Source: Chiloscyllium plagiosum (Eukaryota). From it: a stretch of DNA of 63,574 nucleotides. Location of the stretch: contig NC_057756.1 in NCBI RefSeq assembly GCF_004010195.1, forward strand, positions 9,516,151 through 9,579,724. The letters are read 5' to 3'. The notes beneath the pieces are model-generated. The model was given only the letters and a program-made list of their open reading frames with translations. It was not told where the DNA came from and searched no databases. The translations under genes were made by a program, and so were the position numbers. Below, piece after piece: positions 16,707-48,769 of this stretch; position 1 is the stretch's first letter; the number at the start of each line of letters is the position of its first letter.

Positions 16707-19285
16707 TCAGGATTCAAAACAGTTTCTCAGGTGAGCTTTAAAAGTTGCTGAATTTTTAAAGTCATTTCCACAATGTCGGCAGGTTTTATAACACGTGTGA
16801 GCTATCAACTGATAGAGATAAACAAAGGTCTCCCCACAGTCAGGACATTTATACGGCCTCGCTCCTGTGTGGGTCTGCTGGTGACGATGGAGGTTCGAAG
16901 CCTGTGTGAAACTCTTTCCACAGTCAGTACATTTATGCAGCCTTTCTCCTGTGTGGGTCCGCTTGTGAGAATGGAGGTACCCAGACCATGTGAAACTCTT
17001 TCCACAGTCAGTACATTTATACGGCTTCTCTCTTGTGTGGGTCCGCTGGTGAGAATGGAGGTCCCCAGACTGTGTGAAACTCTTTCCACAGTCAGTACAT
17101 TTATACAGCCTTTCTCCTGTGTGGGTCCGCTTGTGAGAATGGAGGTCCCCAGACCGTGTGAAACTCTTTCCACAGTCAGTACATTTATACGGCCTCACTC
17201 CTGTGTGGGTCCGTTGGTGACAATGGAGGCTATCAGATCGTGTGAAACTCTTTCCACAGTCAGTACATTTATACGGCCTTTCTCCTGTGTGGGTCCGCTG
17301 GTGAGAATGGAGATGTCCAGACCGTGTGAAACTCTTTCCACAGTCAGTACATTTATACGGCCTCACTCCTGAGTGGGTCCGCTGGTGAGAATGGAGATAT
17401 CCAGACCGTGTGAAACTCTTTCCACAGTCAGTACATTTATACGGCCTCTCTCCTGTGTGGGTCCGCTGGTGAGAATGGAGATATCCAGACCGTGTGAAAC
17501 TCTTTCCACAGTCAGTACATTTATACGGCCTCTCTCCTGTGTGGGTCCGCTGGTGAGAATGGAGATGTCCAGACGATGTGAAACTCTTTCCACAGTCAGT
17601 ACATTTATATGGCCTCTCTCTTGTGTGGGTCCGCTGGTGAGAATGGAGATATCCAGACCGTGTGAAACTCTTTCCACAGTCAGTACATTTATACGGCCTC
17701 TCTCCTGTGTGGGTCCGCTTGTGAGAATGGAGATGTCCAGACCATGTGAAACTCTTTCCACAGTCAGTACATTTATATGGCCTCTCTCTTGTGTGGGTCC
17801 GCTGGTGACAATGGAGATCCCCAGACCGTGTGAAGCTCTTTCCACAGTCAGTACATTTATACGGCCTTTCTCCTGTGTGGGTCCGCTGGTGACAATGGAG
17901 GTTCCGAGTCTGTGTGAAACTCTTTCCACAGTCAGTACATTTATACGGCCTCTCTCCTGTGTGGGTCCACTGGTGACAATGGAGGCTATCAGATCGTGTG
18001 AAACTCTTTCCACAGTCAGGACATTTATACGGCCTTTCTCCTGTGTGGGTCCGCTGGTGACGATGGAGGGTCGAAGCCTGTGTGAAACTCTTTCCACAGT
18101 CAGTACATTTATACGGCCTCTCTCCTGTGTGGGTCTGCTGGTGATGATGGAGGTTCGAAGCGTGTGTGAAACTCTTTCCACAGTCAGTACATTTATATGG
18201 CCTCTCTCCTGTATGGGTCCGCTGGTGACAATGGAGGTCCCCAGACCGTGTGAAACTCTTTCCACAGTCAGTACATTTATACGGCCTCACTCCTGTGTGG
18301 GTCCGCTGGTGACGATGGAGGGTCGAAGCCTGTGTGAAACTCTTTCCACAGTCAGTACGTTTATACGGCCTTTCTCCTGTGTGGGTCCGCTGGTGACAAT
18401 GGAGATGTCCAGCCTGTGTGAAACTCTTTCCACAGTCAGTACATTTATACGGCCTCTCTCCTGTGTGGGTCTGCTGGTGACGATGGAGGTTCGAAGCGTG
18501 TGTGAAACTCTTTCCACAGTCAGTACATTTATACGGCCTCTCTCCTGTATGGGTCCGCTGGTGACAATGGAGATCCCCAGACCGTGTGAAACTCTTTCCA
18601 CAGTCAGTACATTTATACGGCCTCACTCCTGTGTGGGTCCGCTGGTGACAATGGAGGTTCCGAGCCTGTGTGAAACTCTTTCCACAGTCAGTACATTTAT
18701 ACGGCCTCACTCCTGTGTGGGTCCGCTGGTGACAATGGAGGTCCCCAGACCGTGTGAAACTCTTTCCACAGTCAGTACATTTATACGGCCTCACTCCTGT
18801 GTGGGTCCGCTGGTGACAATGGAGGCTATCAGATCGTGTGAAACTCTTTCCACAGTCAGTACATTTATACGGCCTTTCTCCTGTGTGGGTCCGCTGGTGA
18901 CAATGGATGTTCCCAGACCATGTGAAACTCTTTCCACAGTCAGGATATTTATGTACCCTCTCTCCCAAATGGGTTCGCTGGTAGATCCCAGACAATGGGA
19001 AATTCTTACCATGGTCAGTACATTTGTGCAGTCGTTCTTCTTTGTGGATTTCTTGCTGCAAGTGATTTTCATCTGATTTAGTAAATTCTCTATTCTGGAT
19101 GGATTCTGTAAATAATCCCTCCTGATTTTGTTGATGCATACGATCATTTTTATTGAAAGGAGTAGACTGTCCTGCTGAAACCTGACCACATGATACAGGA
19201 TGTCTTCTGATATGCTTCTGAAGAAAACTGGCAGTGGTAAATGCAACATTGCAGTGAGGGCAAGGATAACACTCATCTTCCTCTC
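16707..19285 (-). CDS. PRDM9: PRDM9 terminal exon: post-SET zinc finger, spacer, degenerate fingers, 24 tandem C2H2 repeats and divergent C-terminal fingers
   Basis: Acceptor tcattag|GA GAG GAA at 19285; frame gives [29 protein letters not shown] (post-SET finger), in frame with ORF 16707..19139; stop at 16707-16709. Confidence 0.95.
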
Positions 19286-22200
19286 CTAATGAGCTGCCAG
19301 AGGAAGTGGTGGAGGCTGGTACAATTACAACATTTAAGAGGCACCTGGATGGGTATATGAATAGGGAGGGTTTGGAGGGAAAAGGGCCGGGTGCTGGCGG
19401 GTGGGGCTATATTGGGTTGGGATATCTGGTCGGCATGGACAGTTGGACCGAAGCGTCTATTTCCATGCTGTACATCTCTATGACTCAATGACAGTCAGTA
19501 TGCTTCAAATGGCAATATTTCAGGGCTAGAGAAATTTGGGACATCCCAAATACATCCAAACCTCTGCCAAGATTGCCTTTCTTTCTTTACTTGGAAGTAT
19601 CAGGATGATTTTAAGAAAACAGTTCCTGAATTCAGTACCTACTTCAATGTGTAAACAGTCTGCGACTCAGAGACAACAACAGAGTCAATAAGAAGGGCCC
19701 ACATTATAAAGGTGAAAGGCAGGAAGTTTTGAGAAGATTTCAGAAAAACATTTTTTTACCCAGTGAGTGGTGGGGCTCTGGAATGCACTGTCTGGGTGGA
19801 TAATTGAGGCAAAGAACCTCACAACCTTTAAAGACTACTTGGATAAGCACTTGGAGTGTCACAACAGTCAAGGCAAAGGGCATTGTGCTGCAAAGTGGGA
19901 CTAGTATAAATTGAGAGTTGATTTGTTAGCACAGACTTGATAGGCTGAACAGCCTCTTCTGTATTGTATGATTCTATGACAAGACCTGAGAAGGACTGAC
20001 ACATCAACATGTCATTCTCTAGGGGAATCAGGAAAGGGAATAAAGTCATAGAGACGTACAGCATGGAAACAGACCCTTCAGTCCAACTCATCCATGCTGA
20101 CCAGATATCCCAACTCAATCCAGTCCCAACTGCCAGCACCCGGCCCATATCCCTCTACACCCTTCTTATTCATATACCCATCCAGATGCCTTTTAAATGC
20201 TGCACTTTTATTAGCCTCCACTACTTCCTCTGGCAGCTCATTCCATATACATACCACCCTCTGTGTGAAAAAGTTGCCCCTTAGGTCTCTTTTATATCTT
20301 TCCCCTCTCACCCTAAACCTATGCCACTCTAGTTCTGGACTTGCTCCACCGCAGGGAAAATACTTTGTCTATTTATCCTATCCATGCCCCTCATGATTTT
20401 ATAAACCTCTAAAGGCCACCCCCTCAGCCTCTGACAATTCAGGGAAAACAGCCCCAGCCAATTTAGCCTCTCCCTATAGCACAAATCTTCTAGTCCTTGT
20501 AAATCTTTTCTGTTCCCTTTCAAGTTTCACAACATCCTTCTGATAGGAACAGGACATTGGTTAGGCCACTGTTGGAATATTGCGTGCAATTCTGGTCTCC
20601 TTCCTATTGGAAAGATGTTGTGAAACTTGAAAAGGTTCAGAAAAGAATTACAAGAATGTTGCCAGGGTTGGAGGATTTGAGCTACAGGGAGAGGCTAAAC
20701 AGGCTGGGGCTGTTTTCCCTGGAGTGTCAGAGGCTGAGAGGTGACCTTATAGAGGTTTACAAAATTATGAGGGGCATGGATAGGGTAAAGAGGCAAAGTC
20801 TTTTTCCTGGGGTCGGAGTGTCCAGAACTAGAGGGCATAGGTTTAGGGTGAGAGGGGAAAGATATAAAAGAGACCTAAGGGGCAATGTTTTCATGCAGAG
20901 GGTGGTATGTATATAAAATGTGCTGCCAGAGGAAGTGGTGGAGGCTGGTACAATTGCAACATTTAAAAGGCATTTGGATGGGTATATGAATAGGAAGGGT
21001 TTGGAGGCATATGGCCAGGTGCTGGCAGGTGGGACTAGATTGAGTTGGGATATCTGGTCGGCATGGACGAGTTCGACCGAAGGGTCTGTTTCCATGCTGT
21101 ACATCTCTATGACTCTATGAGGAAGGATACCAGAATTGCATGCAACATTCCAAAACTGGTCCAACCAATGTTCTGTACAGCCACAACATGACCTCCCAAC
21201 TCCGACCAAGAAGAAATGAGGAACAATACCACCAGACCTCCAGTCCAGAGAGGACCTTTTGCAGTATAAACATAATTTAGCTGAACCTAATCTTCATCAC
21301 TCTCTGTGCTCTATGGTAAACACAAAGATCAAACAGTCAATTATCTGTGTTCTCTGGTGAATTTTTTTTAAAACCAGTTAATATAATTCTATCCTTAGCT
21401 GCTTTATCACAAAATCAAATAAGTTAAACATCTTTAATGAACATCTCTGAAACCTTCAAGGCACAACATGGAAAACATTCACGCCTTCCATTTGACATTA
21501 CGCAACTGAAGTCTCCCATTTTGAATCTGTTCTGGTAAATCTCCACTGAACATGCCTCAGCACATTGTCATTTTTTTCCAAATCGAGATGCCCAGAATTT
21601 GAAACAGCATTCCATCTGAAGTCAAAAAGGCCATTTATAAAGGTTTCTCAAAGCGCATTTGTGTCACGTCAGTAAGTCCTTATCGATGTATTAAATGCCT
21701 TTCTGAGTTATGTGAATCTCCAGATTCCTCTTCATGCATCAACTTTTAATCAATGCCACTGAATTTACATAATCACTCCTCACACTACTCTGAATTGAAT
21801 TTCATCTGCTGTGTCTTCCCACTGTATGTCGATCTGCATCTTCCGGTGGTCCTCCACGCTCCTCTTCACTATTTACTATATTTTCAAGTTTTGGCAGCTG
21901 CAAATACGATCAGGTATCCAAAAACAGGTCATTAATACATAGAATCAGCAGGAGGTCCAGTACTGTCCACTGGAATGAACCAGATTATAACCATCTAATA
22001 AGCAGACATTCCATCCAGAATTATTCTTTACTTCCTGATACTTAAACCTATTTTATGTTCATGTTGCCACTCCTCCTTCACTACAAGGATTTCTATTCAA
22101 CTAACAATTCTATTATGTGGCAATTTATCAAACAATGTTGATATTAAAACAAACAGAAAATGGCTAATTTTATTAAGTTCTCAATTTTGGACAGAATCCT

Positions 22201-25200
22201 TACCTTTTGGATTTTGTTTCATCATCCACATTGCTGTCCATTTGATTCCAAGCTCCTTGGCATATTCGTCACCATACCAGACCAGCAGCTCGCACCGAGG
22301 AGGAACACGCTTGCAGGTTCTGTAATAAATTTTGCCATGGTGCTGAAAGGCTACAAGATTCTGCTCCTCTTCCTTTCTGGCACAGTTAACAAATCTGGAA
22401 CATAACAAGTGAATACTTAACTGACCAAACGTCAGTTCAAATTGTTGCATGAACACAGGTTGAGAAGCAGAACAAAAATGTGTCAGAATGACAGGGCATA
22501 CCTCTATCCATTACAAAATTACAATGCATGCTATGCATACTGTACAAGATAATTGTGTCAACATTTCAAAGGAGATGGGGAGGGATTTTAGAAGGGCAGC
22601 ATGGTAGTTAGCATTGCTGCCTCACAGTGCCAGGGTCCTAGGTTCGATTCCCTCCTTGGGCCACTCTCTGTATGGAGTTTGCACATTCTCCCTGTGTCTG
22701 CGTGGGTTTCCTCCGGGTGCTCCGGTTTCCTCCCACAGTCCAAAGATATGCAGAACAGGTGAATTGGCCATGCTAAATTGCCCATAGTGTTAGGTGCATC
22801 AGTCAGGTGTAAATATAGGGTAGGGGAATGGGTCTGGGTGGATTACTGTCCGGAGGGTCAGTGTGGACTGATTGGGCTGAATGGCCTGTTTCCATGCTGT
22901 AGGGAATCTAATCTAAAAATAGAAGAGAGGATAGATTTACCCAAAAATATGGGTTTCCCAGTTTTCTCATCGAACTTCTGCAATTCTTCTTCCGAAAAAC
23001 ACCCAAATGTTTGGACCAAAGCTTTTGTTAGATACCTTAGATTCATCATCCTTCAGCATAGAGACAGACCCTTTGGCCCAAACTGGTTCATGCTAACCAA
23101 AATGTCCACCCATGCTAACCCCATTTTCCTGCATTTGGCCCATATCCTTCTAATCATTTCCTATCCAAGTATTTGTCCAAATGCCTTTTAAATGCTGTTA
23201 ATGTACCCGCCTCAACCACTTCCGCTGGCAGCTCACTAACATTAACAATACCACCCACTGTGTAAAGTAGTTGCCCCTCTTTTATTCTTTCCTGTCTAAC
23301 CTTTAACTGATGCCCTGTAGTTCTCAATTTCCCAACCTTGGGAAAAAGACTGAGTGCATTACCCCATCCATGCCTCTCATGATTTTCTGTCCTTCTGTAA
23401 TATCACCCCCTCTGCCTCCTACTATCTAAAACAAAAAGTGCTAGCTTGCCCAACCTCTCCCTATAACTCAGACCCTTGAGTCCTGGCAATATCCCTGTAA
23501 ATTTCTTCTGCACTCTTTCCATTTAATGATTTGGAGATGCTGGTGTTGGACTGGGGTGTACAAAGTTAAAAATCACACAACACAAGGTTGAGCTCAAAAA
23601 CTGCATGAATTTATGTAAAACTCCGTTATCTCACTCTTTAGATTAGAATCAATCTAAACATCATGGCATAGACAGCGAACACAGGGGGCCAACACCTTCA
23701 ACATATTGTCTAGCTATCACTATTGTTAACAGCTAACCCGAGAATGCAACTTTAAAGAAGGTTTTGTGATTTACACATGAAAGAAGTGAAACTATCACTG
23801 TATTCTAACAGATGAAAGGCTTAACAGACAATCAATTTTTCAATGTATAATTTCAGTTACATCACACTGTAAATTTTTGCTATAAAATTCTGTGTTACGA
23901 TCGAGCCCTCCACTATCACGAGATGAAGGAGCGTCGCTCCGAAAGCTAGTGTGCTTCCAATTAAACCTGTTGGACTATAACCTGGTGTTGTGTGATTTTT
24001 AACTTTCCATTTAATAACATCCTCCTGACAGCAAAGTGACCAAAACTGAACACAATACCCAAGTGCTGTACAATGTCTATACTCAATGTGCCAAAAGCTT
24101 TCATCACTGAGCTCTCTACCAATGACTCCACTTTGATAGAACCATGCACCTGAACTCCAAGTTCGCTCTGTTCCACAACACTCTTTAAAGCCCTATCATT
24201 CACCGTGCAACTCCTACCTGGATTTGACTTTACAAAATGCAAGACTTCACACTTATCTATATGAAACTCTATTGCCATTTCTCGGCTGATCAAGGTCCTG
24301 CTGCAATTTTTCTCACTGTCCATGATACCTACTTTTTGATAATCTTCCTCACTGTCCATGACACCTATTTTTGTGTCATCTTCAAACTTACTAATCATGT
24401 TGTACAGTGGCTCAGCAGTTAGCATGTTGCCTCACAGAGTCAGGGACCAGTGTATGATTCCAGCCTCAGGCAAATGTCTTTGTGAAGTGGAGTTTGCACA
24501 TTCTCTGCATGTCTGGTGGGTTTCCTCAGGGTGCTCAATGCAAAGATGAGCAGGTTAGGTGAATTAGCAATGTTAAATTGTGCATAGTGTTCAGGGATGT
24601 GTAGAATCGGTGCATCAGTCAGGGTAAATGTACAGTACTAGGGCTGTGAGATAGGCCTGGGAGGGTTACTCTTCGGAGGATCAGTGTGGAGATGTTAGCC
24701 CTGTGTCAAGGTTCAAGGGCGTTCGCACCCATAATCCTCTGACAGAAGAAATTCCTGATTATTTCACTCTTACATTTCACATCCCTTCAGTCTGAGACTG
24801 TGCCCTCTGGTTCGAGATTCTCCCATGAGGAGAAACATCCTCTCAGCATTTATCTTGTCAAGCCCTTTAAGAAGTCTCTACATTTCAATTAGATCACTTC
24901 TCTTTCTTCTAAACTTCAGTGAGTAGAGACACAATCTGTTTAGCCTTTCTCATGAGACAATCCCTCCATGCCAGGGATCATCTTCATGAACCTTTGTTGA
25001 ATTGCTTCCAACGAAATTACACACTCTCTTAAATAAGGGATCCAAAACTGCTCACACTCCTCCAGGTGCAGTCTCATCAGCACCTTGAACAGGTGAAGTA
25101 ATACTTCCCTAATCTGATGCTCCAACCCCTTTGAAATAAGGGCCAGCTTTCTATGTTTTGTCTGCAAGTACCTCAAGTCCCTTTATGTTGCAACTTTCTG

Positions 25201-28200
25201 TCAGTATGGATAGATTTTGTGATGTTCATTGCATTATTTATACATAGTTTCAATATAATTTAGTCCAAGGTTGGATTTTGAATGGATAACATATTGATTA
25301 TTCTGTGCATCGGTGAAAGTTTTGATAATTGAACTACTAGTCAATCTCCAGTCATAAGTCCTAGGCTGAAGATGGTTGTATAAAACAGCATAATAGAGGA
25401 GAGACGACTGTAAAAACAGACTACCTTAGTTTAGGAAATTTATTGAAAATCCAAGACCACAAATGTTTGGATAATGCCCTGAAGTTATTTCAAACTAAGA
25501 GTAATTAATCACAGGCACTTGAAAGCTCCAGGAAAATGTTATCAGCTTTTTTTAGACTTAGAGTTGAAGTCACAGATAACTTAAGCATATTGATACATTA
25601 GGAGACTTTTCTTTGATTTGAGCACTGCACACAGGATGTTTCTCAATACTGTAATTAAGTGTTTTGCATTGGTATTTTGTGTTGAGTGAGATTATACTTT
25701 CACTGTGTTCGAAGTTTTACATGTTGTGACATATGTAAAAGTATTGGTTTATTCTATTTTATCATCATTTGTTCTGGTTAATAAATTTTACTTTGATTAT
25801 TAAAACCAAATCTGCAATATTGTGTGCTTATGTTTCAGTGAGAGACCATCTTGCTAAAACCAAGACAAAATATAACCTACCAAGCCGGATATCAATCTGA
25901 CCAGTAATTACTTCACCAGTAATAACATGACGTAAGATCATAACAGTTATTATATGTGATGCTTCAGGGTAAGAGAAACTGGCTGAGAGCCAAGTACACA
26001 AGTTCTGACAATATTATATCTGTCTTCCCTTACCTCATCCAATTTGATTTAGATTCATCCTTTGCATCAATGTATTCAACATCTTGCTTTCCTTTACTGA
26101 TCTGAAGAAAGGTATTTTGATAAAACAATTTGATTGTTAAAAGGAATCAAATATATCTTTTATTTAGCCATTGATCTAATTTTATTTACAAGAACTGCAT
26201 GCAGTGGCTTCACGTTTTTAGTGAAAGCTTAACAATACCGTCCTTTACTTTTTGTGATTATAGCTTCGTGTCAGTGAATCCAGAGCTCCATATAAACTAC
26301 AAAGCCACAAAGTAGTAAACAGTTTCAGGGAGATTTGAACAGTCAGGAAAGAATCCCAAACTAATTCAAATCGCCTTTGGTGTTTGTCATGTCGCTATTT
26401 TTCTTATAGTTCCTTCTACCCCTCGCCTACTCTGCAATTCTCAATCAGAAATTTCAAGGTTCTGATACATTGTTCCCCAGTTGGTCAATTGCCCACTATG
26501 AGGAATACCAGAATATTAGTTCCATAAACACTCAATGTATTAAATTGAAAATTTATTTTTAATAAGGACTGCCAATCTTTGAATTATCTCCCCATGCTGG
26601 CTATGGAAGCTCAGTGTTTGAGTATATTTCAAGCAGATGTTGATGCTTCTTGCAATAAATCATGTAATCATCAATGAAATTGTGTGGGTAAAGGGAACTT
26701 AAGTGTCTGATTCACCGTGATCAAATTCAATGATGGACCAGGCTTGAGGGAGTGAATGGCTTCCTCTGGATCCTGTGAAGGAGGAAAGAAACAGAGGAAA
26801 TGCAAAATCAGTTTAGGAGAGAATGAGAAAAGGAAGTGAAGGCCAAAGTAATCCAATAAGAAGTGGTTGACTTGTTGCCAATCTTGTTGCCAAGATTAGA
26901 TCATACACAATACAGGTAGAACAAAGTTCTGGCTTTCTGAAAGAAGGCAGCAACTAGCGGTTGATGGAAAATATTCAGCCTGGAGTCCGGTTATAAATGG
27001 TACGTATCTGTTTTGGGACCACTGCTGTTTGTCATTTTTATAAATGACTTGGACGCAGGCATAGGTGGATGGGTTAGTAAGTTTGCAGATGACACTAATG
27101 TCGGTGGAGTAATGACAGTGTGGTAGAATGTTGCAGGTCGCATGGGGACTTGGATAAACTGCAGAATTGGCTGAGAGGTGGCAAATGGAGTTCAATGCAG
27201 CTAAATGTGAGATGATGCACTTTGGGAAGAAAAACAGGAAGGTAGAGTACCGGGTCAGTGGAAAGATTCTTGGCAGTGTGGATGTCCAGAGGGATCTTGG
27301 AGTCCATGTACATAGATCCCTGAAAGTTGCCATCCAGGTTGATAGTGCTGTTAAGGAGGCATACAGTGTGTTAGGTTTCATTCGTAGAGGGATTGAGTTC
27401 CGGAGCTGCAATATCATGCTGCAACTATGCAAAACTCCAGTGTGGCCACACTTGGAATACTGTGTACAGTTCTGGTTGCTATATTTCAGGAAGGGTATGG
27501 AAGCATTGGAAAAGATGCAGAGGAGATTTACCAGGATGCTGTCTGGGCTGGAGGGAAGGTCTTATGAGGAAAGGCTGAGGGACTTGGGTCTGTTCTCATT
27601 GGAAAGAAGAAGGCTAAGAGGGGATTTGATAGAGACACACAAGACTATCAGAGGATTATATACAGTAGACAGTGAAAGTCTTTTTCCTAGGATGACGACG
27701 TCAGCATGTACAAGGGGGCATAACTACAAATTGAGGGGTGATAGATTTAAGACAGATGTCAGAGGTAGGTTCTTTACTCAGAGAGTGGTAAGGGTGTGGA
27801 ATGCCCTACCTGCCAATGTCGTTAACGCAGTCACATTAGGGAGATTTAAACAATCCTTGGATAAGCACATGGATGATGATGGGATAGTGTAGGGTGACGA
27901 GTTGAGAATAGTTCACAGGTCAGCGCAACATTAAGGGCCAAAGGGCCTGTTCTACGCTGTATTGTTCTATGTTCTAAGGTTGTTGGATGCAGAACTGGCT
28001 TGAAGGTAGAAGGCAGAAGGTGGTGGTGGAAGGTTGCTTTTCAGACTGGAGTGTGTGCCACAAGGATCTCTTCTGGGTCCACTGCTTCTCATCATTCATA
28101 CAAATGACGGGATGAGAACATGGGAGGTACAGTTAGTAAGTTTGCAGATGGCACTAAAATTGGAGTTGTAGTGGACAGCGAAGAAAGTTACCTCAGAGCA

Positions 28201-31200
28201 CATCTGGATCTTTAGACGGGCCAATAGGGCGAGGAGTGGCAGATGGAGTTTAATTTAGGTAAATGTGAGGTGCTGCATTTTTGAAAGGCAAATCAGGGCA
28301 GAACTTATACACTTACTGGTAAGCTCTTGGGGAGTGTTGTTGAACAAAGAGATTTGGAGTGCAGGTTCATAGTTCCTTGAAAGCAGAGTCACAGATATAC
28401 AGGGTGATGGAGAAGATGGTAGTACACTTGCCTTTGTTGGTCAGTAGAAAACTTAAGTAGGCCAATCTTAACTTACGAACCATTACGTCTTTGGGTTTGT
28501 TCAATGCCAAGTACATTACTGTCTAACTTGATTCCCCTGGCTGTCCATTCATTGTCAAGACTGGAGAAGCAACCAGAAACAGAAACCTTAAACTTTTCAC
28601 AAATATTTTCCAATGAGTCCTCAGCTTCTTTAAAACATGCAAGAAACCTGATAATGATGACAGGCACTCACCACCCATGAATAGCCACTGACAGCAGCTG
28701 ATTCTTCATTTGATGTGATTCCTTCATAGGGTCCAAAATGAACTCCTTTAGGAATAGCCTTTCCTTCATTCCACACACCAAGACCAGCCTTTCTAATTTT
28801 TGATATCGCAATGCTGAGGCCCTCTGGAAGGGTTAAACGTGCTCGATCTGGTTGATTGAATTCAACAACTGTGTCCTTTATGAACACTGGAGGACCATGC
28901 ACAGGACACTCTTCAACAAAAAATGTCTCGCAATCTTCGCAAACTGTTGAAACACACAAAATTAAAGATGGATCAGGATTTCAGTTTATTACTCAATATT
29001 TATGAAGGTGACAGGGCCAGCATGGAGAAAGCTCTCAGAAACACGTTCAATCCATTCATTGTCAAGAGGGCAACACAGATTTCAAGGAACGGTAACAACG
29101 CAAGAAATGCCACTAACCTTGAGCCAACCTCCACTTACAGTTATGGAGATGTACATAATGGAAACCGACCCTTTGGTCCAACTTGTCCATGCCGACCAGT
29201 TATCCTAACCTAATCTAGTCTCATTTGTCAGCACTTGGCCCATATTTCTCTAAACTTTTCCTATTCATATACCCATCCAGATGCCTTTTAAATGCTGTAA
29301 TTGAACCAGCCTCCACCACTTCATTTGACAGTTCGCTGCATACATACACCATCCTCTGCATAATAAGGTTACCCCTAAGATCCCTTTTCTATTTTTCTCT
29401 TCTTACCCTAAACCTATAGCTCTGGCTTCCTCCACCCCATGCAAAAGATTGTCTATTTATCCTGTCCATGCCCTTCATGTTTTTATAAACCTCTATAAGG
29501 TCAGAATATGAACAGCATTAGCTCTTAGGGGTAAGGTACTGGCATCAACAGAGATTGGCTGACTGGCAGAACAGAGTGGGGATAACGAGGTCTTTTTCAG
29601 AATGGCAGCTGGTGACTAGCGGAGTTCCATGGGACTTCATGTCGGGACCACAACTATTAATGTTAACAATCTGGATGGAAGAACTTAAGGCATCGTTGCT
29701 CAGCTTGAAGATGACACAAAGGTAAGTGGAGGGACAGGCAATGCAGAGGAAGCAGCAAGACTGCAGAAGGACGTGGACAAGTTACAAGAGTGGGCAAAGA
29801 AATGGCAGATGGAATACAATGTCTGAAGAGTGAGGTTATGCATTTAGGTTGGAATACAGACATAGATGATTTTATAAAGAGGCAAAGGCTTTGGAAATCT
29901 GAAGTACAAAGTAACTTGGGAGTCCTGGTTCAGGATTCTCCTCAGGTTAATATGTAGGTTCAGATGGCAGTCAGGAAGGCAAAGAGAATGTTGACATTCA
30001 TTTCAAGAGGGCTACAACACCAGAGCAGTGATATACCTGCTGAAGCTGTAAACGGGTCTGGTCAGACCACATTTCAATATTTTAGGTGGTTTTGGGTTCC
30101 GTATCTAAGGAAGGATGTCCTGGCCTTGGAGGGTTCCAGTGGAGGTTTCCAAGAATGAATGAAACTTACAGAACACTGAGAAACCTGGGCAGAGTGGTTG
30201 TGGAGATAAATGTTTCCACTGGTCGGAGACAGGGTGGTTAATCTATGGAACTAATTGTTGCAGAGGGAGCATCTTGTGATCATTTGTAGTTGGTGATGAG
30301 GAAACATAAGTGCTTGTTTCTGGACAAACACGGGGTTTTTCCCTTGCCAGGCTATATTGCTGCAGCAATGGTCTAATTTCTCAAAGCATGTCATATCAAC
30401 CCTTCCAATAAATTCTTCCTGAAGAATTGGCTAGGTCACTTTTCACGTACACAGAAAATCATCATCACAAAGTTCCCTTTCTTCAGTGTAAATCTTTCTC
30501 TCTTTATTTCTCAAACTGTATCTTCGCTCTTCCTTTTTATTGTGTGTTTCCTCACTTGAAGATTCCAAAGTGTTTCCAGAACAGACAACTGTGGAAGAAA
30601 TCAGAAAGATTTGAATAATCCCTGAAAAAATCCAACTCTTTTTGTTGTTTTATAGAAAGGGTATTTTCTGTTTCAAGTTCAGAATCTGTAGATAATTATA
30701 TATAACAAGACACTGAGTAAGTTTGATGAATCACTGCTGGAGTAGACACATTGCCATCAAAAGCTTATCCTCACTAAAATATAAAAATAAAGTAAAATCC
30801 AAAATCAACAAATCTATTCAGAAATTCCTTTATTCCTGGACAGATACCTTTGATGGATTCTTCTTGAGCCTCAAATTCACTCATCGCAGTATTAGTTTCT
30901 CGTTTGATCTTTTTAACTGAAACTGTCTCTTCCAAAACTGAGGGAGTGCCCTCACTGAAGCTCCTTAAACCTGCATCTTTGTCCTCCTGTAAATGGGATG
31001 CAATTGCCAATTGTCCTTCCTCGTTCTGAAATGTAAAATGTAATTTTTACATATTGTAACTCTCAACTTTCTCTGATCACCAGATTATGCTTTCCATTTG
31101 GTCTTGTTTCATACTTAATAAACCAAGGTTCCCAACCACCCATTTGAGAAATGTATTCTCTCTCTCCAGTTACATATTTTAGGAATTCCCTTGTTTGAAA

Positions 31201-34200
31201 CTATCCTTTTGTATTTCACTTAAGTAAAGTTAATCTTCCAAGTAAGTTGCATGTCTTTCAATCTGCTGTTAATTGAAAATTTCAGGTTCTCAGGGTGCAT
31301 TTATTGATAATCAACATCAAGAGGAGGTAATTTACAATGTCACTAGATCATGAAATTTAAAATGACAAATCTGCAAGTGGAGAATAGGATTAGAGATAGG
31401 AACAAAATAGAATCAAGTTCGCAGTAACTCTGGGCAGAAATACCACCAAGGATAAAAGGAAACACTGAAGCTGGAAATCTGAGATCAACACACAAAATAT
31501 TCAAGTGCGTACTAGGTCATTTTGAGTTGGAAGAGTAGATAATGATGTAAGTATTTCAGCTACAGGGAGAGGCTGAATACACTGAGGCTGGTTTTCCCTG
31601 GAGATACAGAGGCTGAGGGGTGACCTTATAGAAGTTTATAAAATCATGAGGGGCATGGGTAGGATAAATAGAAAAGACCTTTTCCCTGGGGAGAGGAGCC
31701 CAGAACTAGAGGCCATAGGTTTAGGGTGAAATAGGAAAGATATCAAAGGGACCTAAAGTACAACTTCTTCACACAGAGGGTGGTGCCTGCATGGAATGAG
31801 CTGCCAGAGGAAGTGGTACAATTACAGCATTTAAAAGGCATCTGGATAGGTATATGAAAAGGAAGAATTTCGAGGGATATGGGCCAAGTGCTAGCAAATG
31901 GGACTAGATTAGGTTAGGAAATCTGTTGGCAGGGACAAATTGGACCAAAGGGTGTGTTTTCGTGCTGTACGTCTCTATGACTCTGATTCTAATATATCTT
32001 TCAGATGTTGACAGGGTTGCAATGAATATCCAATAGTTTCTTTTTGACTTGATATGTTACCTGGTAACAACTCTGCGCGGACCAAATTACCTTTTTGCTG
32101 TTCTCTTTCTTTGTCTTCTTGGTACCATCATTCTTGAAAGGTGGCTTAAAGGTTCTCACCTCTTTAAAAGAATTTCAATTTCATTTTAGATTTTCTAAAG
32201 TTGAAGCTTTTTTCCATTAGTAACACTGACAATCCTTAACATTTTCAAAGCAGAATCAAATATAATGTAGCTAAGAAGCATATTTGCGTTAATTCTAAAT
32301 GCACCTGCATATACATACGTAAAGTCAAATACTCAATTGACTTGACTTTGCAAGTTATAAATGTAAAGTGACTGCCTCCAGCTTGCTCATGGCTCACACA
32401 AAATTAAAATAAAACATTTTAAGATTTTTAACAAAGGAAACAAATTCAACTTACGTAGTGGGTTTTTCACAAGACATTTAGGTGTCCAATCTTCATCTGA
32501 ATCACTAGACTCATACACACAAGGTCGATTACCTCTGCCATGTCTCAACATGAATGCTGGCTTTGGTACATTCAATCCTGTAAAAATTTAAATATTTCAA
32601 TCATTGGCCATTTACAATTGTCAATATTTATTTTTACTTATCAGAGTGAAATAAGAAACCTGTTGAATCCAATCATTTCAGAATCTCAGGTAAGAGCAAT
32701 ACAGGACATCCTTCCATGATGGCACCCAAATATTCATCCAGCTACAATTAAGCAAGTTAAAAGAAGCTGTCACATTACGCCAGATTACTTGAAACACAGC
32801 ACCCAGACCAATGGACATCCAACAGCCTTTAAATTTATTTTTCCCTTCTAGTGTGTGACCAACTGCAGGGTCAAAATGAAGGCAGCATATTGTGATGCCT
32901 CAATGTACAGGAAAAGGAAAGATATCAAAGATGCAAAGGTTACCTCCATTATTTCCAAGTGATTTTTTTTTATCTTGAGTCAGCACTTTAAAATGTATAA
33001 GGTTTACTACAATGAGCAAAGGAAAACAACACAAGCACCATGTCAAAGATAAACATGGACAGCACGAGTCTGAAATAACATTAAATTTTGCAAAGAATCC
33101 ACATTTCAGTCAGCAGCTAAGTGTGGAAAGAGGCACTTTCAAACTAATGTCAAAGGATAAAGATTTTTTTCTGCTTTCTACAAATACCATTCTCATTATA
33201 AATGACAGTGTTTCATTGTGGTTTAACACTACTCATATCAATTAGAAATCAGTTCACGTTGATTGTGTTTCAGGAGTGATTGGAATATGTCCTTTCAGGG
33301 AAGCAAAATTGAAAGGCAGAAGTATATATATTCCAGCACCTTGCTAGCAGTGAGAGCCAGAAAGGAAGTGTGCACCCCAGCATCCTTAGCCTGGAAGGTT
33401 AAATTTGGTTCAAAATGATTTTAAAATATGAAATCAAACAGCATCTCAATGTAAGTTATTTAGTAAAATGCGCTGATTAATTGAGAGCAATAAGCTAGTC
33501 TTGCAGCACTTGATCAGATTTGTGGGGCAGCACTTGATCAGATTTGTGGGCGGCACGGTGGCACCGTGGTTCGCACTGTTGCCTCACAGTGCCAGAGACC
33601 CGGGATTTCAATTTCCGCCTCAGGCAACTGACTGTGTGGAATTTGCACATTCTCCCAGTGACTGCGTGGGTTTCCTCCGGGTGCTCTGGCTTCCTCCCAC
33701 TATCCAAAAATGTGCAGGTTAGGTGAATTGGCTACGCTAAATTGCCGATGGAAATGTGTTGCTGGAAAAGCGCAGCAGGTCAGGCAGCATCTAGGGAACA
33801 GGAGAATCGACGTTTCGGGCATTAGCCCTTCTTCAGGAATGAGGAAAGTTGGTCCAGCAGGCTAAGATAAAAGATAGGGAGGAGGGACTTGGGGGAGGGG
33901 CATCNNNNNNNNNNNNNNNNNNNNNNNNNNNNNNNNNNNNNNNNNNNNNNNNNNNNNNNNNNNNNNNNNNNNNNNNNNNNNNNNNNNNNNNNNNNNNNNN
34001 NNNNNNNNNNNNNNNNNNNNNNNNNNNNNNNNNNNNNNNNNNNNNNNNNNNNNNNNNNNNNNNNNNNNNNNNNNNNNNNNNNNNNNNNNNNNNNNNNNNN
34101 NNNNNNNNNNNNNNNNNNNNNNNNNNNNNNNNNNNNNNNNNNNNNNNNNNNNNNNNNNNNNNNNNNNNNNNNNNNNNNNNNNNNNNNNNNNNNNNNNNNN

Positions 34201-43200: not shown

Positions 43201-46200
43201 GTCTATGGTGGTCCAATGAGCAAATAACCACACTGCTGCTTAAAATCACATTGCTAAAACTCAGATAGGATTTCTCACTTTTGTACTCTGGAAAATTCAG
43301 AACCTTCATCTGCGATTTAACAATGAGAAAATCAATATTCAGAAGTTCCAAGGCCCAGGACAGCAATTTACTTCTCACAACAGGTCTAATGGGTGTTAAT
43401 AATGCAAAATGGAAAATCCCAACCCAACGTCTGTCTTCACAAGACAAGACTGACCAGAACAATGCAATATTCAGAGAAGCCAGCACATGTCAAAAGTTGT
43501 CAGGAAAGGCAGCTTCACAGATGGAAAGCAAAAAACATTGACTTTGTACAAACCTATTGCAAGCATGGCCTCATAGTTCCTCTTCACATTCTTATAGCGT
43601 GTTTTTTCCCATTCACTTAGCTCTGCCCACTCATCTTTAGAAAAATGATGGGCAATATCTTTAAATTGGTCTTTAATCTGAAAATATAAAATCATGGTAA
43701 TTCTTTATATGTCTCATAAGTGATTGTGTAATCTTCACAAACTAAAGACTTACAAATATGGGATAAGCTACCTTTCCAGATCGACCATTCTTTATTAGAA
43801 TATCCTCCAGGTCCTCAGAGTGGGCAGGCAATAAACACTGGTAGAAAAATTACACAACAAACAACTATCTTACAAGACATTTCAATGATGGAGTTGTTGT
43901 TCATATGGGTACTGTAACAGAGTAAAAATAAAGCTATATAAGTCCACATATCCATTCATTTCACTCAAAAATGCTACCACCTGGCCAGACACCTCTTCGA
44001 AGACCATCCTTAACAGTCACTCCATGTTAGCTGTTGTAGCAAATTCTGCAGGTTTTTTCTGGACCTTGGACAGTTTCTGCCATGACTGCCCTTTTGAGAG
44101 TGAAGAAGCTCTGCATGTCCACCTTCATTGAGTCACCAATAGACATTCAAGGAAGGTTTTCACTGTTTCAATCTTTGTCATTTCTTCACAATTCCCTCTG
44201 TGTTCTGGGGTCAATGATTTACTGCACAATGCTACGACCTCCTGTAACTTGCTGATCTTCTTGTACATGACAATGAGCTATTCGGAGACAACAATCAGAG
44301 ATGACTGGAGTGACATCAACAAAGTTACAACCAGAAGAATACAAAGCCACCTGGCCTTGACCAGTTGCATCAGCATAGTGCTCCAACTGCAGACTTGCTT
44401 GAGACATTGCATAACTTGGCATCATTTCCAGTTTTCATCAGGACACTCGATGTGGCATTGAGCCTTTCCAGATGAACTAGCTGCACTGAAGTCAAAGTTG
44501 ACATTAAGTCTGCATTGTCAACACTGTAGATGTCACCAACAGTAGTGGGATCTGCAGAAAAAAATGCCATTTGTGCATTGTTTTGACTCAGGGTACATAT
44601 TTTAGTTAACTGAAGCAGAGGATCTTGTACCAGAGGATCAGCTATGTGAAAGTGCCCAACTATCACTTCTGACTTCACAGGTACTGAAGTTGCTGCCTGC
44701 CTGACAATACCCACGATGTGAATTATTTTCTCCTTTTATCCTTAATTCCATGACATGGATGTGCCTGGCGAGCATTTATTACCTGAGGTGAAAGTGAACT
44801 GCCTTTTTGAAGCCTTGACATCTACGGGCCTTACAGAAGAAATTACGGGATTTCGATCCAATGACACAAATCGATGCTCATGGTGCGATCATCACAACCA
44901 CAGTCTGTTGTTTCAGCAAACCTGCATGTCACTTTTTACTTTTGAAAAATGCTGACACCAGGATTGTGCTGCCAACTGTAGCCAAGCCTGTGAATGTATC
45001 TAGGAGATGGACCTTGAAATATTGGGGCCAATGACTGTTGAAAGCCTCCATGGATATCCCAGAAGACCATTCCTCTTTGACTCTAAGGCACAGCCATTTG
45101 CTTGCAGCACTGGCAGGTGAGTTACTATGTAAAGGCTGCTGGCACATGGCACAGGTGCAAGCTTTAAGTAGTTTACAGCATACAGCAGGATGTCTCCCCT
45201 ATTACTTAAAGGGGGTTCACCATCAAGCCAAGATGTCTGCCTTTGAATACGCACTAAGAAACAAAGCAGGACACTGAGGTGCTAACTGACTGAGCGCTAA
45301 AAGAACAAGTGATCAGAACCCAATCTGACAGCTGGGTGTATTTAAATAGCAGCAGTGAAATGATAATTGTCAATGTCTCAAGCTAAACAGTTTTAAATGT
45401 CCTATCAGTGGATTGAACAGATGCCATGCCATTTTTGAGAGTCTGGACATTGCTGAATGGCAGCATCCGTGGACATGGCACCCAAATTAGGCACAAGCGA
45501 GGACTGCAGATGCTGGAGATGGAGTCAATGGTATGGTGCTGGAAAAGGTCATGCAGTATCTGAGGAGCAGGAGAATTGATGTTTTGGCTAAAAGCCCTTC
45601 ACCAGGCATGAGGCTGTGAGCCGAGGGGCTGCTGAAATAAACGGGAGGGGAGTGGGGCTGGGGAGAAGGTAGCTGAAAGTGTGATAGGTGGGGTTAATGA
45701 TGATAGAATGGAGAGGAGAAGGGAGAAGTTACGTGGGAAGGAAGATGGGCAGGTGATGAGGGCGGTGCTGAGTTGGAAGGTTGGAACTGGGATAAAGTGA
45801 GGGGGTAGGAAAATAAGGAAACTGGTGAAATCCACATCGGGACCCTCCAACCCAACGGCACCAAAGAGGAAGGCGAAGCATTCTTCCTCCAGGTGTCAGA
45901 TGGTTAGGGAGTGGTGATGGGAGAGGCCCAGGACCTGCATGTCCTTTGTAACTGTGAGGGGGCATTGAAGCTTTTGGCTACAGGGCAGTGCATTTGGTTG
46001 GTGCTGGTGTCCTGGAGATGTTTTCTGAAGTGCTCTGCAAGTTGGGGGCCCAAGATGATGGCCCTCATAACCCAGAACTGCAAAAGTGCATTTATGCCAT
46101 TCGGACCAAAGGATACAAACATCTGGCTGCATCTGGTGACAGAGTGGCAGCTGCGATAGATTAGCAGGCCCAGCCGTCTCACAGTATGCTATAAATGAGT

Positions 46201-46811
46201 GATCCTGTACTCCATGACATTCATCGTTGGTCCTCAGCACACAGAGTAATTTGATAGGGACCTTGAGCTCACTCCGAGTGCACCTTCCTCAGGTAGAAAC
46301 TTCAATGTCTCCTCTAAAGACACTTCATAGGTAGTCTGGGCTTCCACCTCCAACCTTGCAAACGAGTTCTGTCTTTCATATTATAAATTCTTGGCCTCTA
46401 GCCTCCTTGTGGTGTGTGGTAGGATCAGAAGCTCTATGTTAAGGTGGTGACATATGCCATTTAAAAAGCCATCTTAATGCTGCCAACTGGAATCTTGTCT
46501 TGACATCTGGAACGTTGTGGGGAGAAAGTAGTTTGTTATATCAGACATCTAAAAATACCTCACTTGATATATCAGACGATTTGTCCAGATTAATTGCCAT
46601 TGCTTATATGGCAGAGCCCTTTAAGATATTGCCATGAGGAACACTGACAGCATTGACGTGACTGACCAGCTGAACCTTCCTCACACAAAGCTGCAAAAAG
46701 CCCACTGACTTTCTGGTTTCCACTGAAAATCTCCGATGACTTTACCTCAGATTTCCTCTGCTCTGACAGCGCCTTTCCAACACCTTTCCCATTACTCTTA
46801 GCTTTATCCAT
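16707..46811 (-). CDS. PRDM9: PRDM9 (meiotic H3K4/H3K36 methyltransferase, recombination hotspot determinant), whole spliced CDS span; model join(46746-46811,43754-43837,43554-43677,32455-32577,32091-32161,30848-31025,30451-30588,28672-28943,26034-26101,22204-22394,16707-19285), 3894 nt, ~1297 aa
   Basis: Ordered KRAB, SSXRD, Zn knuckle, PR/SET, post-SET finger and tandem C2H2 array on one strand; all junctions GT-AG with matching phases; 124, 272 and 68 bp exons match the sizes I recall for mammalian PRDM9. The first two coding exons are less certain. Confidence 0.93.
16854..18869 (-). repeat. 84-bp coding minisatellite (24 zinc-finger units)
   Basis: Near-identical [28 protein letters not shown] units; 24 x 84 = 2016 bp. 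Confidence 0.97.
19288..19486 (+). mobile_element. 5'-truncated CR1/HER1 LINE 3' end abutting the PRDM9 last-exon acceptor
   Basis: aatgagctgccagaggaagtggtggaggctgg...ctgtacatctctatgactc, same as other copies; aatga at 19288 and 19487. Confidence 0.93.
20043..21203. mobile_element. Nested CR1/HER1 copies in opposite orientation (minus 20043-20549 plus 21121-21203; plus 20550-21120)
   Basis: Minus copy is broken at ggaa and resumes at 21121 after a plus-strand copy of the same family. Confidence 0.88.
22204..22394 (-). CDS. PRDM9: PRDM9 exon, C-terminal PR/SET (191 bp)
   Basis: ttccag|[63 protein letters not shown]; donor AAAG|gtaagg; contains human Y341 and Y357 equivalents. Confidence 0.96.
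22594..22917 (+). mobile_element. HE1-type V-SINE
   Basis: SINE consensus with ctaatcta tail. Confidence 0.9.
23055..24390 (-). mobile_element. CR1 LINE fragment interrupted by a Penelope terminal element (~23528-24003)
   Basis: [11 protein letters not shown]...KCEVLHF on minus strand; insert bounded by aaaatcacacaacac / gtgttgtgtgatttt inverted repeat. Confidence 0.75.
26034..26101 (-). CDS. PRDM9: PRDM9 exon, middle PR/SET (68 bp)
   Basis: ttcttcag|[34 protein letters not shown]|gtaagg; too short for the ORF track. Confidence 0.95.
26930..27977 (+). mobile_element. CR1 LINE 3' half (second subfamily)
   Basis: ORF 27167..27892 [16 protein letters not shown]...[14 protein letters not shown]; ttctatg tail. 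Confidence 0.92.
28672..28943 (-). CDS. PRDM9: PRDM9 exon, zinc knuckle plus N-terminal PR/SET (272 bp)
   Basis: [24 protein letters not shown]...AGLGVWNEG...HFGPYEG (Y276 equivalent)...SGYSWV; tcaacag| and |gtgagt. Confidence 0.96.
30451..30588 (-). CDS. PRDM9: PRDM9 exon, SSXRD
   Basis: [28 protein letters not shown]|gtacgt; acceptor ttcttccacag at 30589-30591; an alternative in-frame acceptor gives an exon start at 30621. Confidence 0.88.
30848..31025 (-). CDS. PRDM9: PRDM9 linker exon (178 bp)
   Basis: catttcag|AAC GAG GAA...TCC ATC AAA G|gtatct; open frame, phase 0 to 1, fits neighbours. Confidence 0.8.
31555..31985 (+). mobile_element. CR1/HER1 LINE 3' fragment
   Basis: agctacagggagaggctgaa...ctctatgactct. 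Confidence 0.88.
32091..32161 (-). CDS. PRDM9: PRDM9 linker exon (71 bp)
   Basis: ttttaaag|AG GTG AGA...AGC AAA AAG|gtaatt; [23 protein letters not shown]; phase 1 to 0 is exactly what is needed between flanking exons. Confidence 0.72.
32455..32577 (-). CDS. PRDM9: PRDM9 exon, end of KRAB and DSDEDWTP motif (123 bp)
   Basis: ttttacag|[18 protein letters not shown]...[15 protein letters not shown]|gtaagt. Confidence 0.93.
33547..34935 (+). mobile_element. HE1-type SINE interrupted by a Penelope-like insertion spanning the N-gap
   Basis: SINE breaks after tacgctaaattgcc (~33746) and resumes with the same 14-mer at ~34797. Confidence 0.8.
33801..33840 (-). ncRNA. Minimal hammerhead ribozyme core in a Penelope terminus
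   Basis: CUGAAGA-A-GGGC-UAAU-GCCC-GAAAC-GUC-GAUUCUCC; helix I weak. Confidence 0.55.
34971..36003 (-). mobile_element. RTE-clade LINE, 5' part (endonuclease end and linker), inverted
   Basis: [15 protein letters not shown]...[15 protein letters not shown]...SKHWHQL...[28 protein letters not shown]. Confidence 0.85.
38404..39835 (+). pseudogene. env: ERV env pseudogene (gamma-type TM)
   Basis: Signal peptide [16 protein letters not shown]; fusion peptide [12 protein letters not shown]; heptad and ISD-like LQNHYALD; stops and frameshifts. Confidence 0.82.
39863..40289 (+). mobile_element. ERV 3' LTR
   Basis: TG directly after PPT, TATAAAA ~40105, AATAAA ~40218, ends ...tttaaCA. Confidence 0.8.
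40290..40690. repeat. C-rich minisatellite (cattaacccctctc...cctcag), crosses an N-gap
   Basis: About 7 imperfect ~30-bp units before the gap, similar unit after it. Confidence 0.8.
40728..42381 (+). mobile_element. RTE-clade LINE, 3' part (RT to tail)
   Basis: [55 protein letters not shown]; (cctca)n tail. Confidence 0.9.
42533..43173 (+). mobile_element. Solo-LTR-like repeat; related copies at ~6560-7088 and ~11925-12510
   Basis: TG...CA ends; shared tttaagaggttattt start, ttgcatgtgagacaa...ttttctgaatttgcc core and gtct(a/g)gtccataaca end. Confidence 0.6.
43554..43677 (-). CDS. PRDM9: PRDM9 KRAB exon (124 bp)
   Basis: ttttcag|[42 protein letters not shown]|gtttgt; typical PRDM9/SSX ancestral KRAB. 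Confidence 0.95.
43754..43837 (-). CDS. PRDM9: Probable PRDM9 N-terminal exon (84 bp)
   Basis: tttctaccag|TGT TTA...ATA TTT|gtaagt; open phase 0-0 frame, 76-bp intron to the KRAB exon. Confidence 0.6.
45500..46035 (-). mobile_element. Penelope-like element 3' end
   Basis: [28 protein letters not shown]; terminal ctgcagatgctggag motif. Confidence 0.7.
46746..46811 (-). CDS. PRDM9: Candidate PRDM9 start-codon exon ([22 protein letters not shown])
   Basis: Good Kozak context ggaATGG, phase-0 donor GAG|gtaaag, ~0.8 kb downstream of the CpG/TATA promoter; no homology support. Confidence 0.5.
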
Positions 46812-47439
46812 TCCTTCTTGAGAACAGGCACTTTGTTTATTCTACTTGAACCTTGAATTGTAGTTCTCTACACCTTAGTTTTCTCCATGGCTATGTCCTA
46901 AGTCTACTAATTCCTCCCTTACTTTATCATCCTACAGGTGAAAATGAATCCCAAACTCCACCAAATATTTTCCTATCAATAATAGCATCTAATCTTTATT
47001 GAACTAATGTCTGAACTGCACTTTTCTTCTGACTTTCCTTCATCATCTTAGCCTTCTTTCTCACTTAAATGAGATAAGCCAAATCCATCAGGAATTCATT
47101 TTATTCCATTCCTGTAAAAAACAAAGTCACCAAACAAATTTCTGGAATATTAAACACAAGTTACAAACTGAAAAGGAACCAAAACACAACCTAGTGGTTA
47201 TTTTTCTTTTCCGGAAAAAGTCCAATCTTTCCCCTCTCCAATTTCAAAAACCCAAGAAAAACAAATTGTAAAACTGGCCATTCCGTTACCAGTTACCCAT
47301 CCATTTTCCAAATTCGTGTTTAAGTTAACAAAGGGCTCCTTTAATCTAGAGCGAGCAAACTCGCTAAATAACGTGAGGTGATAATAGTCTCTCGTCTTGT
47401 TCTTTTTTTCACCCAGAGATTTATTTCTGACTGCACCCG

Positions 47440-47765
47440 CCCTCACTTATCTGCTCCAGCCTCAATCCCTAACTGTTTGATTCCCCGAAGGTTTGACTAA
47501 ATTGAAATATCCCTCGAGTCCACCCAGTTAAAGAGTTCACTTTTCCCGCGCTCTCTCCCTCTGTCAGCCTCGCGCTTTCTGCCGATCTCCCGCCGACGCC
47601 GCTCCTATTTATAGCCTCCCACGCGCGCGCACCTGTGACAGTTGGCGGCCGTTTTTCTTCAAAAGATCCTCGCGCTCTCCCGCGCGCGGCTCCCAACCGT
47701 CGAAGTCAGCCGCCCTCATTGACGGAACTTCGGCCACGTGCCGCTCCCCGCGCCATGACCTCGTG
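47440..47765 (-). promoter_or_regulatory. CpG-rich promoter of PRDM9 with TATA box
   Basis: Most CpG-dense non-repeat patch in the window; TATAAATA on minus strand at 47606-47613; E2F-type TTTCCCGC 47542-47549, TCCCGC 47588 and 47678; CACGTG 47735-47740; TTTGAA on minus strand at 47658-47663. Confidence 0.75.
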
Positions 47766-48769
47766 GTTTGGGTCTTTGGATGGATGGGGGGGGGGGGGGG
47801 TGTCAGACGTGTTTAAGGCAACAGGCCCTTCGGCCCAAACTGGTCAGTGCCGACCATGGTGCCCACTCAGCTCGTTCCACTTGCCCGCATTTGGTGCAGT
47901 TCCCTCTAACAATGTGTCTATCCAAGTAGGAGACCAAGGTTCAAGTCGTAACCCGCTCCAGAAATGTGGAATTACATCCTGGAACAAGTGGATTAGAAAA
48001 TATTTACAGGAGAGCTCAGGGTGCAAAGACTGTGGCTCAAAAACACTTAATGGGGTTTGAAAAATATAGAATGCCCACCGTGTGGGAGCCTGTCGAGACT
48101 ACACTGACTCTCCAAAGAGCAACCCACTCATACTCTCACCCTGCGTTTTTGATGGCTAATCCACTTGCACATTCCTGGACACTATGGGCAATTCATCATG
48201 ACCAATATAACTAATCTGCACAACTTGGACTGCAGGAGGAAATTGAAGCCACCTGGCAAACACTGGGAGAATATGTAAACTTAACATACACAGTTGCCCA
48301 AGTCTCAAATCGAACCTGGGTCCTTGATGCTGTGAGGCAGCAATGCAAACCACTGTGCACCCCATATATTCCCTCACTGAAGAGCTCTATTTTGTTCAAT
48401 GTGAACATTCCCTTATTTGAATATCCTTTGATACAGACACATAGGAATAGCAGTAAGCCATTCATTTCCTCAAGCCTCTTCTGTGATTCAATAAGGTCAT
48501 AGTTGATCTATGGTCTAACTCCATATACCTGCCTTGGGCCAAATCCCTTGGGAGTCTTACTTAAAAAGCGGAATATCTGAGATTTAAATTTAACACTGAC
48601 CGCTGTTTGAGGAAGAGAATTCCCAAGCTCCACTACCCTGTTTATAGAAGTGCTTCCTAACAGCTCTTTCGAATGGTTGGGTCCTAATTCTTAGATTATT
48701 GTCCCCTCATTCTAAAATGATCAATTAACAATTCAATAACTAACTATCTCAACAGAATAAATTCTTCCT

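Follow-up and report, generated by a model that had tools for sequence, protein, structure and literature searches.

A tandem PRDM9 pair in the bamboo shark Chiloscyllium plagiosum, one member with a LINE at its last splice acceptor

The stretch of DNA analyzed here (the window) covers 63,574 nucleotides of contig C47 (NC_057756.1) in the 3.56-Gb genome of the bamboo shark Chiloscyllium plagiosum (G000:C47:9516151-9579724) and carries on its minus strand a homologue of PRDM9, the gene that chooses recombination hotspots in mammals. This gene, copy A, has a second copy, copy B, on the same contig. The reading favored here, with a probability of about 0.6, is that copy A is the member of a tandem PRDM9 pair that was hit by a long interspersed nuclear element (LINE) and makes little full-length protein, and that copy B supplies the RNA joining the SET domain to the zinc fingers and likely directs hotspots, because the LINE lies at the last splice signal of copy A and the spliced RNA has the letters of copy B. 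Three things are new: a shark array that evolves rapidly, the arrangement as a tandem pair, and the position of a LINE at the last acceptor of copy A; no study on bamboo-shark PRDM9 or on shark hotspots was among the results listed by literature searches, and PMC11600626 contains nothing on sharks. The locus presents the sequence hallmarks of PRDM9 in an aquarium-breeding shark. It also indicates which copy to genotype, because studies of the finger exon as assembled would confound two genes. The pair may moreover show a PRDM9 duplicate in the course of losing its fingers, as a result of one insertion at a splice site.

The last intron of copy A and the spliced RNA

Motif scans and inspection resolved copy A into 10 coding exons, with its domains within positions 16707-46811 (the start exon is numbered exon 2 and the third SET exon is exon 10, followed by the finger exon). 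Spliced on paper, this model has GT-AG ends throughout and 1269 codons open from ATG 46811, with one terminal stop. The features around its last intron are as follows, in window positions.

22204..22394, minus strand: third SET exon (exon 10), with the equivalents of human Y341 and Y357 at 22324 and 22276 and the A/B-diagnostic sites 22241 and 22358
19288..19492, plus strand: 205-bp end of a 5'-truncated LINE, antisense to the gene, at the expected site of the pyrimidine tract, the acceptor, and the first finger-exon base
19286..19287, minus strand: cryptic in-frame TAG acceptor, with a stronger out-of-frame CAG 8 nucleotides upstream
16707..19285, minus strand: last exon, with the post-SET finger, a spacer, an array of 26 C2H2 units of 84 bp (16834-18952), and the stop (16709-16707)

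The LINE fragment borders on finger-exon base 2, immediately next to the AG of the paper model. Its best other copies among 4193 candidates are 94% alike, and it diverges by 6 to 8% from the nearest ones. Models from Cetorhinus that read through the last intron show the ancestral pyrimidine tract, the first codons of which persist in copy A just upstream of the LINE. We infer that the insertion replaced approximately 17 bases, from the tract through the AG to the first base of the exon. In an acceptor model, the TAG scored −2.4, lower than 19 of 19 true shark acceptors, and the upstream CAG scored 0.1; 29% of 190 intronic AGs score at least as high as the TAG.

Copy A is probably transcribed, because its promoter is the same as that of copy B. 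Its last intron could then be resolved in four ways, for which the products were computed. The out-of-frame CAG would yield a KRAB-SSXRD-SET protein of 412 amino acids without fingers, read-through a product of 417 amino acids, a downstream in-frame site 1232 amino acids without the post-SET finger, and the weak TAG 1269 amino acids. Copy A may be moving towards a fingerless state like that of PRDM7.

In three of the four sequencing runs compared (X4, X5, and X7, from two studies), a single contig each joins 22203 to 19287, with the unique intron near the SET exon uncovered. This junction is 3 nucleotides longer than that of the paper model and would need noncanonical ends in the DNA of copy A; the same extra glycine at the SET-finger junction is present in a C. 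punctatum model (P0123). Exon 10 holds only two differences between the copies (22241 and 22358), and the base of copy B is found at both in X5 and X7 and at the one covered in X4. The SET-to-finger transcripts are therefore most simply those of copy B. Judged by how long they are, the contigs of X5 and X7 would extend to the SSXRD exon. In X1, which bears another species label, the 5' part of the finger exon is covered and the junction is uncovered. Read-through splicing from exon 10 of copy B into the finger exon of copy A was also considered and rejected, since it leaves the three extra bases unexplained. An earlier note on this DNA, made from the sequence alone, had presented copy A as a complete, apparently catalytically intact gene and proposed that its exons be checked against RNA. 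SET-to-finger splicing does occur, but at a junction that copy A does not permit and with bases of copy B. That copy A is the complete, working gene is doubtful, because the LINE displaces the last acceptor and the RNA junctions carry the alleles of the paralog.

Several points weigh against this assignment of roles to the two copies. The RNA comparison covered 4 of 20 listed runs and window positions 18960-22600 only, and the records of these runs give no tissue and do not designate them as RNA. No A-type junction is among the joints listed for the four runs, with 90 weaker joints outside that list, and contigs drop minor variants, so that A-type splicing is possible. Between the RNA and the finger exon of the window, only 1 of 328 bases differs, a result in line with conversion or collapse and also with an allelic difference. 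The acceptor model was trained on 19 shark sites only. In copy A, 859 codons of the finger exon form an open frame, and private changes in the non-helix part amount to only 0.5%; under neutrality, such a state has a chance of 0.002 at the age suggested by the 7% divergence of the LINE (0.16 to 0.40 if the true age is nearer to 1 to 2%). This open, freshly homogenized exon fits continued use, conversion from copy B, or collapse of both copies. A second finger exon was not found in the assembly, where the 5' part, the array, and the 3' end are each single, and the finger exon of copy B was thus not seen in DNA. Finally, the pooled pN/pS at the contact codons of the array is 1.0, not above 1, and positive selection is therefore not shown by this test.

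The second copy and competing readings

Two matches on C47, separated by 135 kb, exist for each of the KRAB, first SET, and third SET exons, and the duplicated block extends from approximately 15800 to 50500 of the window. Exons 2 to 10 of copy B are open and have canonical splice sites; exon 4 lies on the unplaced contig C11689, fitting a scaffold gap. The introns of the two copies are approximately 80 to 92% alike, the ratio of nonsynonymous to synonymous divergence (dN/dS) between them is 0.40, and the assembled exons of both are free of pseudogenizing stops and frameshifts. The last intron of copy B can be followed on C23725, an unplaced contig, as far as window position 19937, which leaves less than 650 bp to the acceptor. 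The 3' flank of copy B is present as well, and the scaffold in between contains gaps and unrelated sequence and is gap-filled. Because the intron continues on C23725 and the 3' flank exists, the finger exon of copy B is probably unassembled. The RefSeq PRDM9 model of Chiloscyllium plagiosum matches copy B; it has 419 amino acids and ends after the SET domain without fingers. Homologue searches with pieces of the finger exon retrieved no protein record for copy A, which is weak evidence. Because RefSeq does name the paralog PRDM9, as a fingerless model, annotation understates the locus, though not in the way feared in the earlier note, where the gene was expected to be open to being called a generic zinc-finger protein.

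At informative sites, the Hemiscyllium model agrees with copy B in 11 of 18 cases, and the C. punctatum model agrees with copy A in 19 of 28. Because Hemiscyllium shares B residues and C. punctatum shares A residues, the duplication likely predates the splits from both, with mosaicism from conversion. Stretches of 99 to 100% identity between the copies, one of them approximately 400 bp long in the promoter, suggest gene conversion or a collapse in the assembly, either of which would keep the two finger exons nearly identical. Copies A and B as haplotypes of one gene were rejected because of the intron divergence, which comes with different insertions, and because the B-derived residues are common to Hemiscyllium.

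It is unlikely that both copies are full length and active, with the pyrimidine-rich end of the LINE serving copy A as an acceptor through the in-frame TAG at the loss of one glycine. The TAG does preserve the frame exactly, the finger exon is open and its array recently homogenized, the other exons and the catalytic residues of copy A are intact, and the dN/dS and the promoter identical to that of copy B are further points in favor. The TAG nevertheless scores below every true acceptor in the comparison and below the out-of-frame CAG, and no A-type junction is among the listed joints, which is weak evidence because contigs drop variants. A fuller form of this idea, in which two intact PRDM9 genes stand side by side, their finger exons are kept in step by conversion, and the LINE was recruited as an acceptor that tunes the ratio of fingered to fingerless protein, is similarly doubtful.

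An account with a single finger exon also has a low probability. According to it, copy B would be a fingerless, PRDM7-like gene and copy A the working one, the LINE junction would be private to the assembled animal or an assembly fault, and the B bases in exon 10 of the RNA would have entered copy A by gene conversion in other animals. It agrees with the one finger exon in the assembly, the RefSeq model of copy B that stops after SET, the near identity of RNA and window in the finger exon, the conversion-like tracts, and the A-like C. punctatum model, which has an intact junction. However, the LINE is old for a private allele given its divergence from its nearest copies, its edges lie precisely within the tract and at the second exon base, where no sequence is shared that could explain a misjoin, the intron of copy B continues towards the exon on C23725 where the scaffold is gap-filled, and the B-like Hemiscyllium model has fingers.

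PRDM9 identity, finger array, and partner genes

In a SET-domain tree (IQ-TREE, 43 rows), copy A falls inside the PRDM9 clade with support of 100/98, and the PRDM11-like gene and three other PR genes of the same genome fall outside it. The tree drew on 40 chosen homologues; P0031, P0006, and P0106 were left out, as the domain was not cleanly excised. The shark SET clade has support of 98/98. The best Protein Data Bank (PDB) matches of the SET region are PRDM9, and solved PRDM9 SET structures align with it. These results bear out the identification as PRDM9 in the earlier note, which had named SET phylogeny as a check. Its statement that PRDM9 orthologues are known from cartilaginous fishes also holds, as whale shark and elephant shark PRDM9 are already published, according to the accessible parts of PMC5519329 and PMC8892340, and RefSeq names the gene in many sharks and rays.

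In the tree, the shark paralogs fall into clusters that follow lineage, a pattern like that of birth-and-death turnover. Among the duplicates P0010/P0011, P0013/P0014/P0017, P0016/P0022, and P0024/P0028 (Heterodontus, Cetorhinus, Pristiophorus, and Rhinoraja), those of one species stand together, which suggests repeated duplication or concerted evolution in sharks and rays. The genome also holds five other genes with a zinc knuckle and a PR domain (C16:3968224, 61880342, 61918332, and 61996145 and C39:8288391). That at C16:61996145 is PRDM11-like and the others are long-branched; three of the five lie within 120 kb on C16.

The array of copy A has 26 units, 23 of which retain all four zinc ligands; in finger 8, a cysteine is replaced by arginine. 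In the 24 core fingers, 0.55 of the amino acid diversity falls at helix positions −1, 2, 3, and 6, and non-helix identity is 96%. The two canonical runs of the array score 0.54 and 0.64 by the Baker statistic, and 22 other arrays score 0.19 to 0.35, which places it first of 23; the comparison arrays come from 24 loci and are only the closest genomic matches among at least 229. The value lies in the range of complete PRDM9s in Table 1 of Baker et al., as far as the accessible text of PMC5519329 goes. The helices are widely different from those of the C. punctatum congener model. The homogenized array described from the sequence alone is thus confirmed and is of the fast-evolving type.

The assembled array may join two arrays, possibly as a chimera of copies A and B. 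Fingers 2 to 14 mostly have cysteine or arginine at helix position +6, as in C. punctatum, and fingers 15 to 24 have serine, resembling some Hemiscyllium fingers. The helices thus differ between the two halves, and non-helix identity is equal within and between them (0.961, 0.966, and 0.964).

Partner genes were identified from CW exons alone, and two of seven CW matches are of the relevant kinds. The ZCWPW1-like exon lies at C48:6710280 (best PDB match ZCWPW1, 7e-13) and the ZCWPW2-like exon at C5:3533698 (best PDB match ZCWPW2, 1e-19), so that both genes proposed for checking have CW exons in the genome. ZCWPW1 and ZCWPW2 co-occur with PRDM9, according to the accessible part of PMC8892340. 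By analogy with mammals and salmonids, the array of copy B would bind DNA motifs, its SET domain would write H3K4me3 and H3K36me3, and ZCWPW1 and ZCWPW2 would read both marks. From the fast array, the spliced SET-to-finger RNA, and the ZCWPW1/2-like exons, PRDM9-directed recombination in the bamboo shark is likely, probably via copy B, and the same evidence supports the proposal of the earlier note that PRDM9 positions meiotic breaks in this lineage. That PRDM9 is complete in the lineage yet no longer does so is highly improbable: the weak SSXRD, the contact-codon ratio, and the listing of the whale shark as one of three orthologues that are complete but lack a rapidly evolving array (PMC8892340, in its accessible part) would fit, but the array ranks first, its helices turn over between congeners, the catalytic tyrosines are all kept, and both reader genes have CW exons.

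Exon layout, known systems, and neighborhood

The remaining features of copy A, all on the minus strand, are as follows.

47385..47790, minus strand: promoter-like CpG island, TATA-like box near 47612 (CpG observed/expected 1.07 versus 0.24 in introns; putative promoter), identical to copy B over approximately 400 bp
46746..46811, minus strand: start exon, ATG 46811, 22 amino acids, with a homologous start in Scyliorhinus, Heptranchias, and Mustelus models
43772..43837, minus strand: optional in-frame 66-nucleotide cassette exon, used by C. punctatum models; its inclusion gives 1291 amino acids
43554..43677, minus strand: KRAB-A exon (Pfam KRAB PF01352, 29.7 bits, cut-off 20.4)
32455..32577, minus strand: second KRAB-region exon (exon 4), with its copy B counterpart on C11689
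32091..32161, minus strand: short linker exon that restores phase (exon model)
30848..31025, minus strand: linker exon (exon model)
30451..30588, minus strand: SSXRD-like exon (custom profile only)
28672..28943, minus strand: zinc knuckle and first SET exon, with the Y276 equivalent at 28728-28726
26034..26101, minus strand: second SET exon (exon model)

The PR domain gives a strong Pfam match. Tyr306, Tyr371, and Tyr387 correspond to human Y276, Y341, and Y357 with identical spacing, in agreement with the catalytic residues noted from the sequence, and they are kept in copy B too. Pfam SSXRD (PF09514) has no match at the Pfam cut-off in the copy A protein, whereas a profile built from 28 amniote PRDM9s gives 19.5 bits, which none of 500 shuffles reached (maximum, 6.3); the accessible text of Baker et al. 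(PMC5519329) also describes shark SSXRD as weak. The full domain set that the earlier note had seen in one open frame accordingly stands for KRAB, zinc knuckle, SET, post-SET finger, array, and GT-AG splicing on paper, but not for the splicing of the last intron as modeled, and its SSXRD is below the Pfam cut-off. The length given there, approximately 1297 amino acids, becomes 1269 when counted from ATG 46811. About 1298 is computed if an open reading frame in the upstream CpG island replaces exon 2 and the cassette exon is kept, which was probably the model behind that figure. This upstream frame (ATG 47719) was not adopted as the first coding exon, because the reading frame into exon 2 differs between the window and the C. 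punctatum model. A near-perfect 94-bp tandem duplication, possibly an assembly overlap, lies 3' of the stop (16299-16490) and is single in copy B.

Full-length vertebrate PRDM9 (human and mouse; PDB 4IJD, 6NM4, and 4C1Q) shares with the shark gene the ten-exon layout, the domain order, the tyrosine spacing, and a homogenized 84-bp array with diversity at contact positions. The shark differs in the SSXRD below the Pfam cut-off, the tandem pair in place of a single gene, and the displaced last acceptor of copy A. The published whale and elephant shark genes are orthologous but, in the accessible text, without a rapidly evolving array, whereas that of copy A ranks first of 23.

Primate PRDM7 is a segmental duplicate of PRDM9 in which a splicing change can give a KRAB-SET protein without fingers, as described in the accessible parts of PMC2082429 and PMC5519329. 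Copy A is likewise a PRDM9 duplicate with a change affecting splicing. Its cause is a LINE at the acceptor, whereas that in PRDM7, in the same accessible text, is an 89-nucleotide internal duplication. Copy A moreover keeps Y357, so that the substitution of this residue that would mark a PRDM7-like duplicate is absent; its finger exon is still open, and its fingerless product is computed only. An adjoining PRDM9 copy is present, the finger exon of which appears complete from RNA.

Salmonid PRDM9-alpha occurs as tandem a and b copies, usually with one functional per species, according to the accessible part of PMC11703093. The shark array statistic of 0.55 equals the 0.552 given there for the active trout copy; the assembled shark exons have no stop or frameshift, and hotspot function is demonstrated for trout and predicted for the shark. 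A cnidarian preprint (10.64898/2026.09.07.749791) states in its accessible part that vertebrates keep one fully functional PRDM9 copy.

Around the pair, a RING-B-box-coiled-coil (TRIM-like) gene (window 53969 and 58372, minus strand, on to C47:9602528) shares the strand of copy A, lies upstream of it, and is not co-duplicated; in an older C. punctatum model, the two genes are fused. Within one of its introns, a Gag_p30 endogenous retrovirus gag (62176-63573, plus strand) consists of two frames split by one stop and runs past the window end. A decayed retroviral remnant in intron 3 of copy A (approximately 35700-40700, plus strand) retains integrase pieces (rve weak, MLVIN_C strong) and has no aligned counterpart in the intron of copy B. 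Between the copies lies a rhodopsin-family receptor exon (C47:9629340-9629999), next to a GC-rich minisatellite, which in the scaffold also occupies part of the last intron of copy B. Some 33 kb downstream of copy A, a degenerate finger exon that contains numerous stops and the remains of a post-SET finger (C47:9497196-9499870, plus strand) is possibly an older, dead PRDM9 copy.

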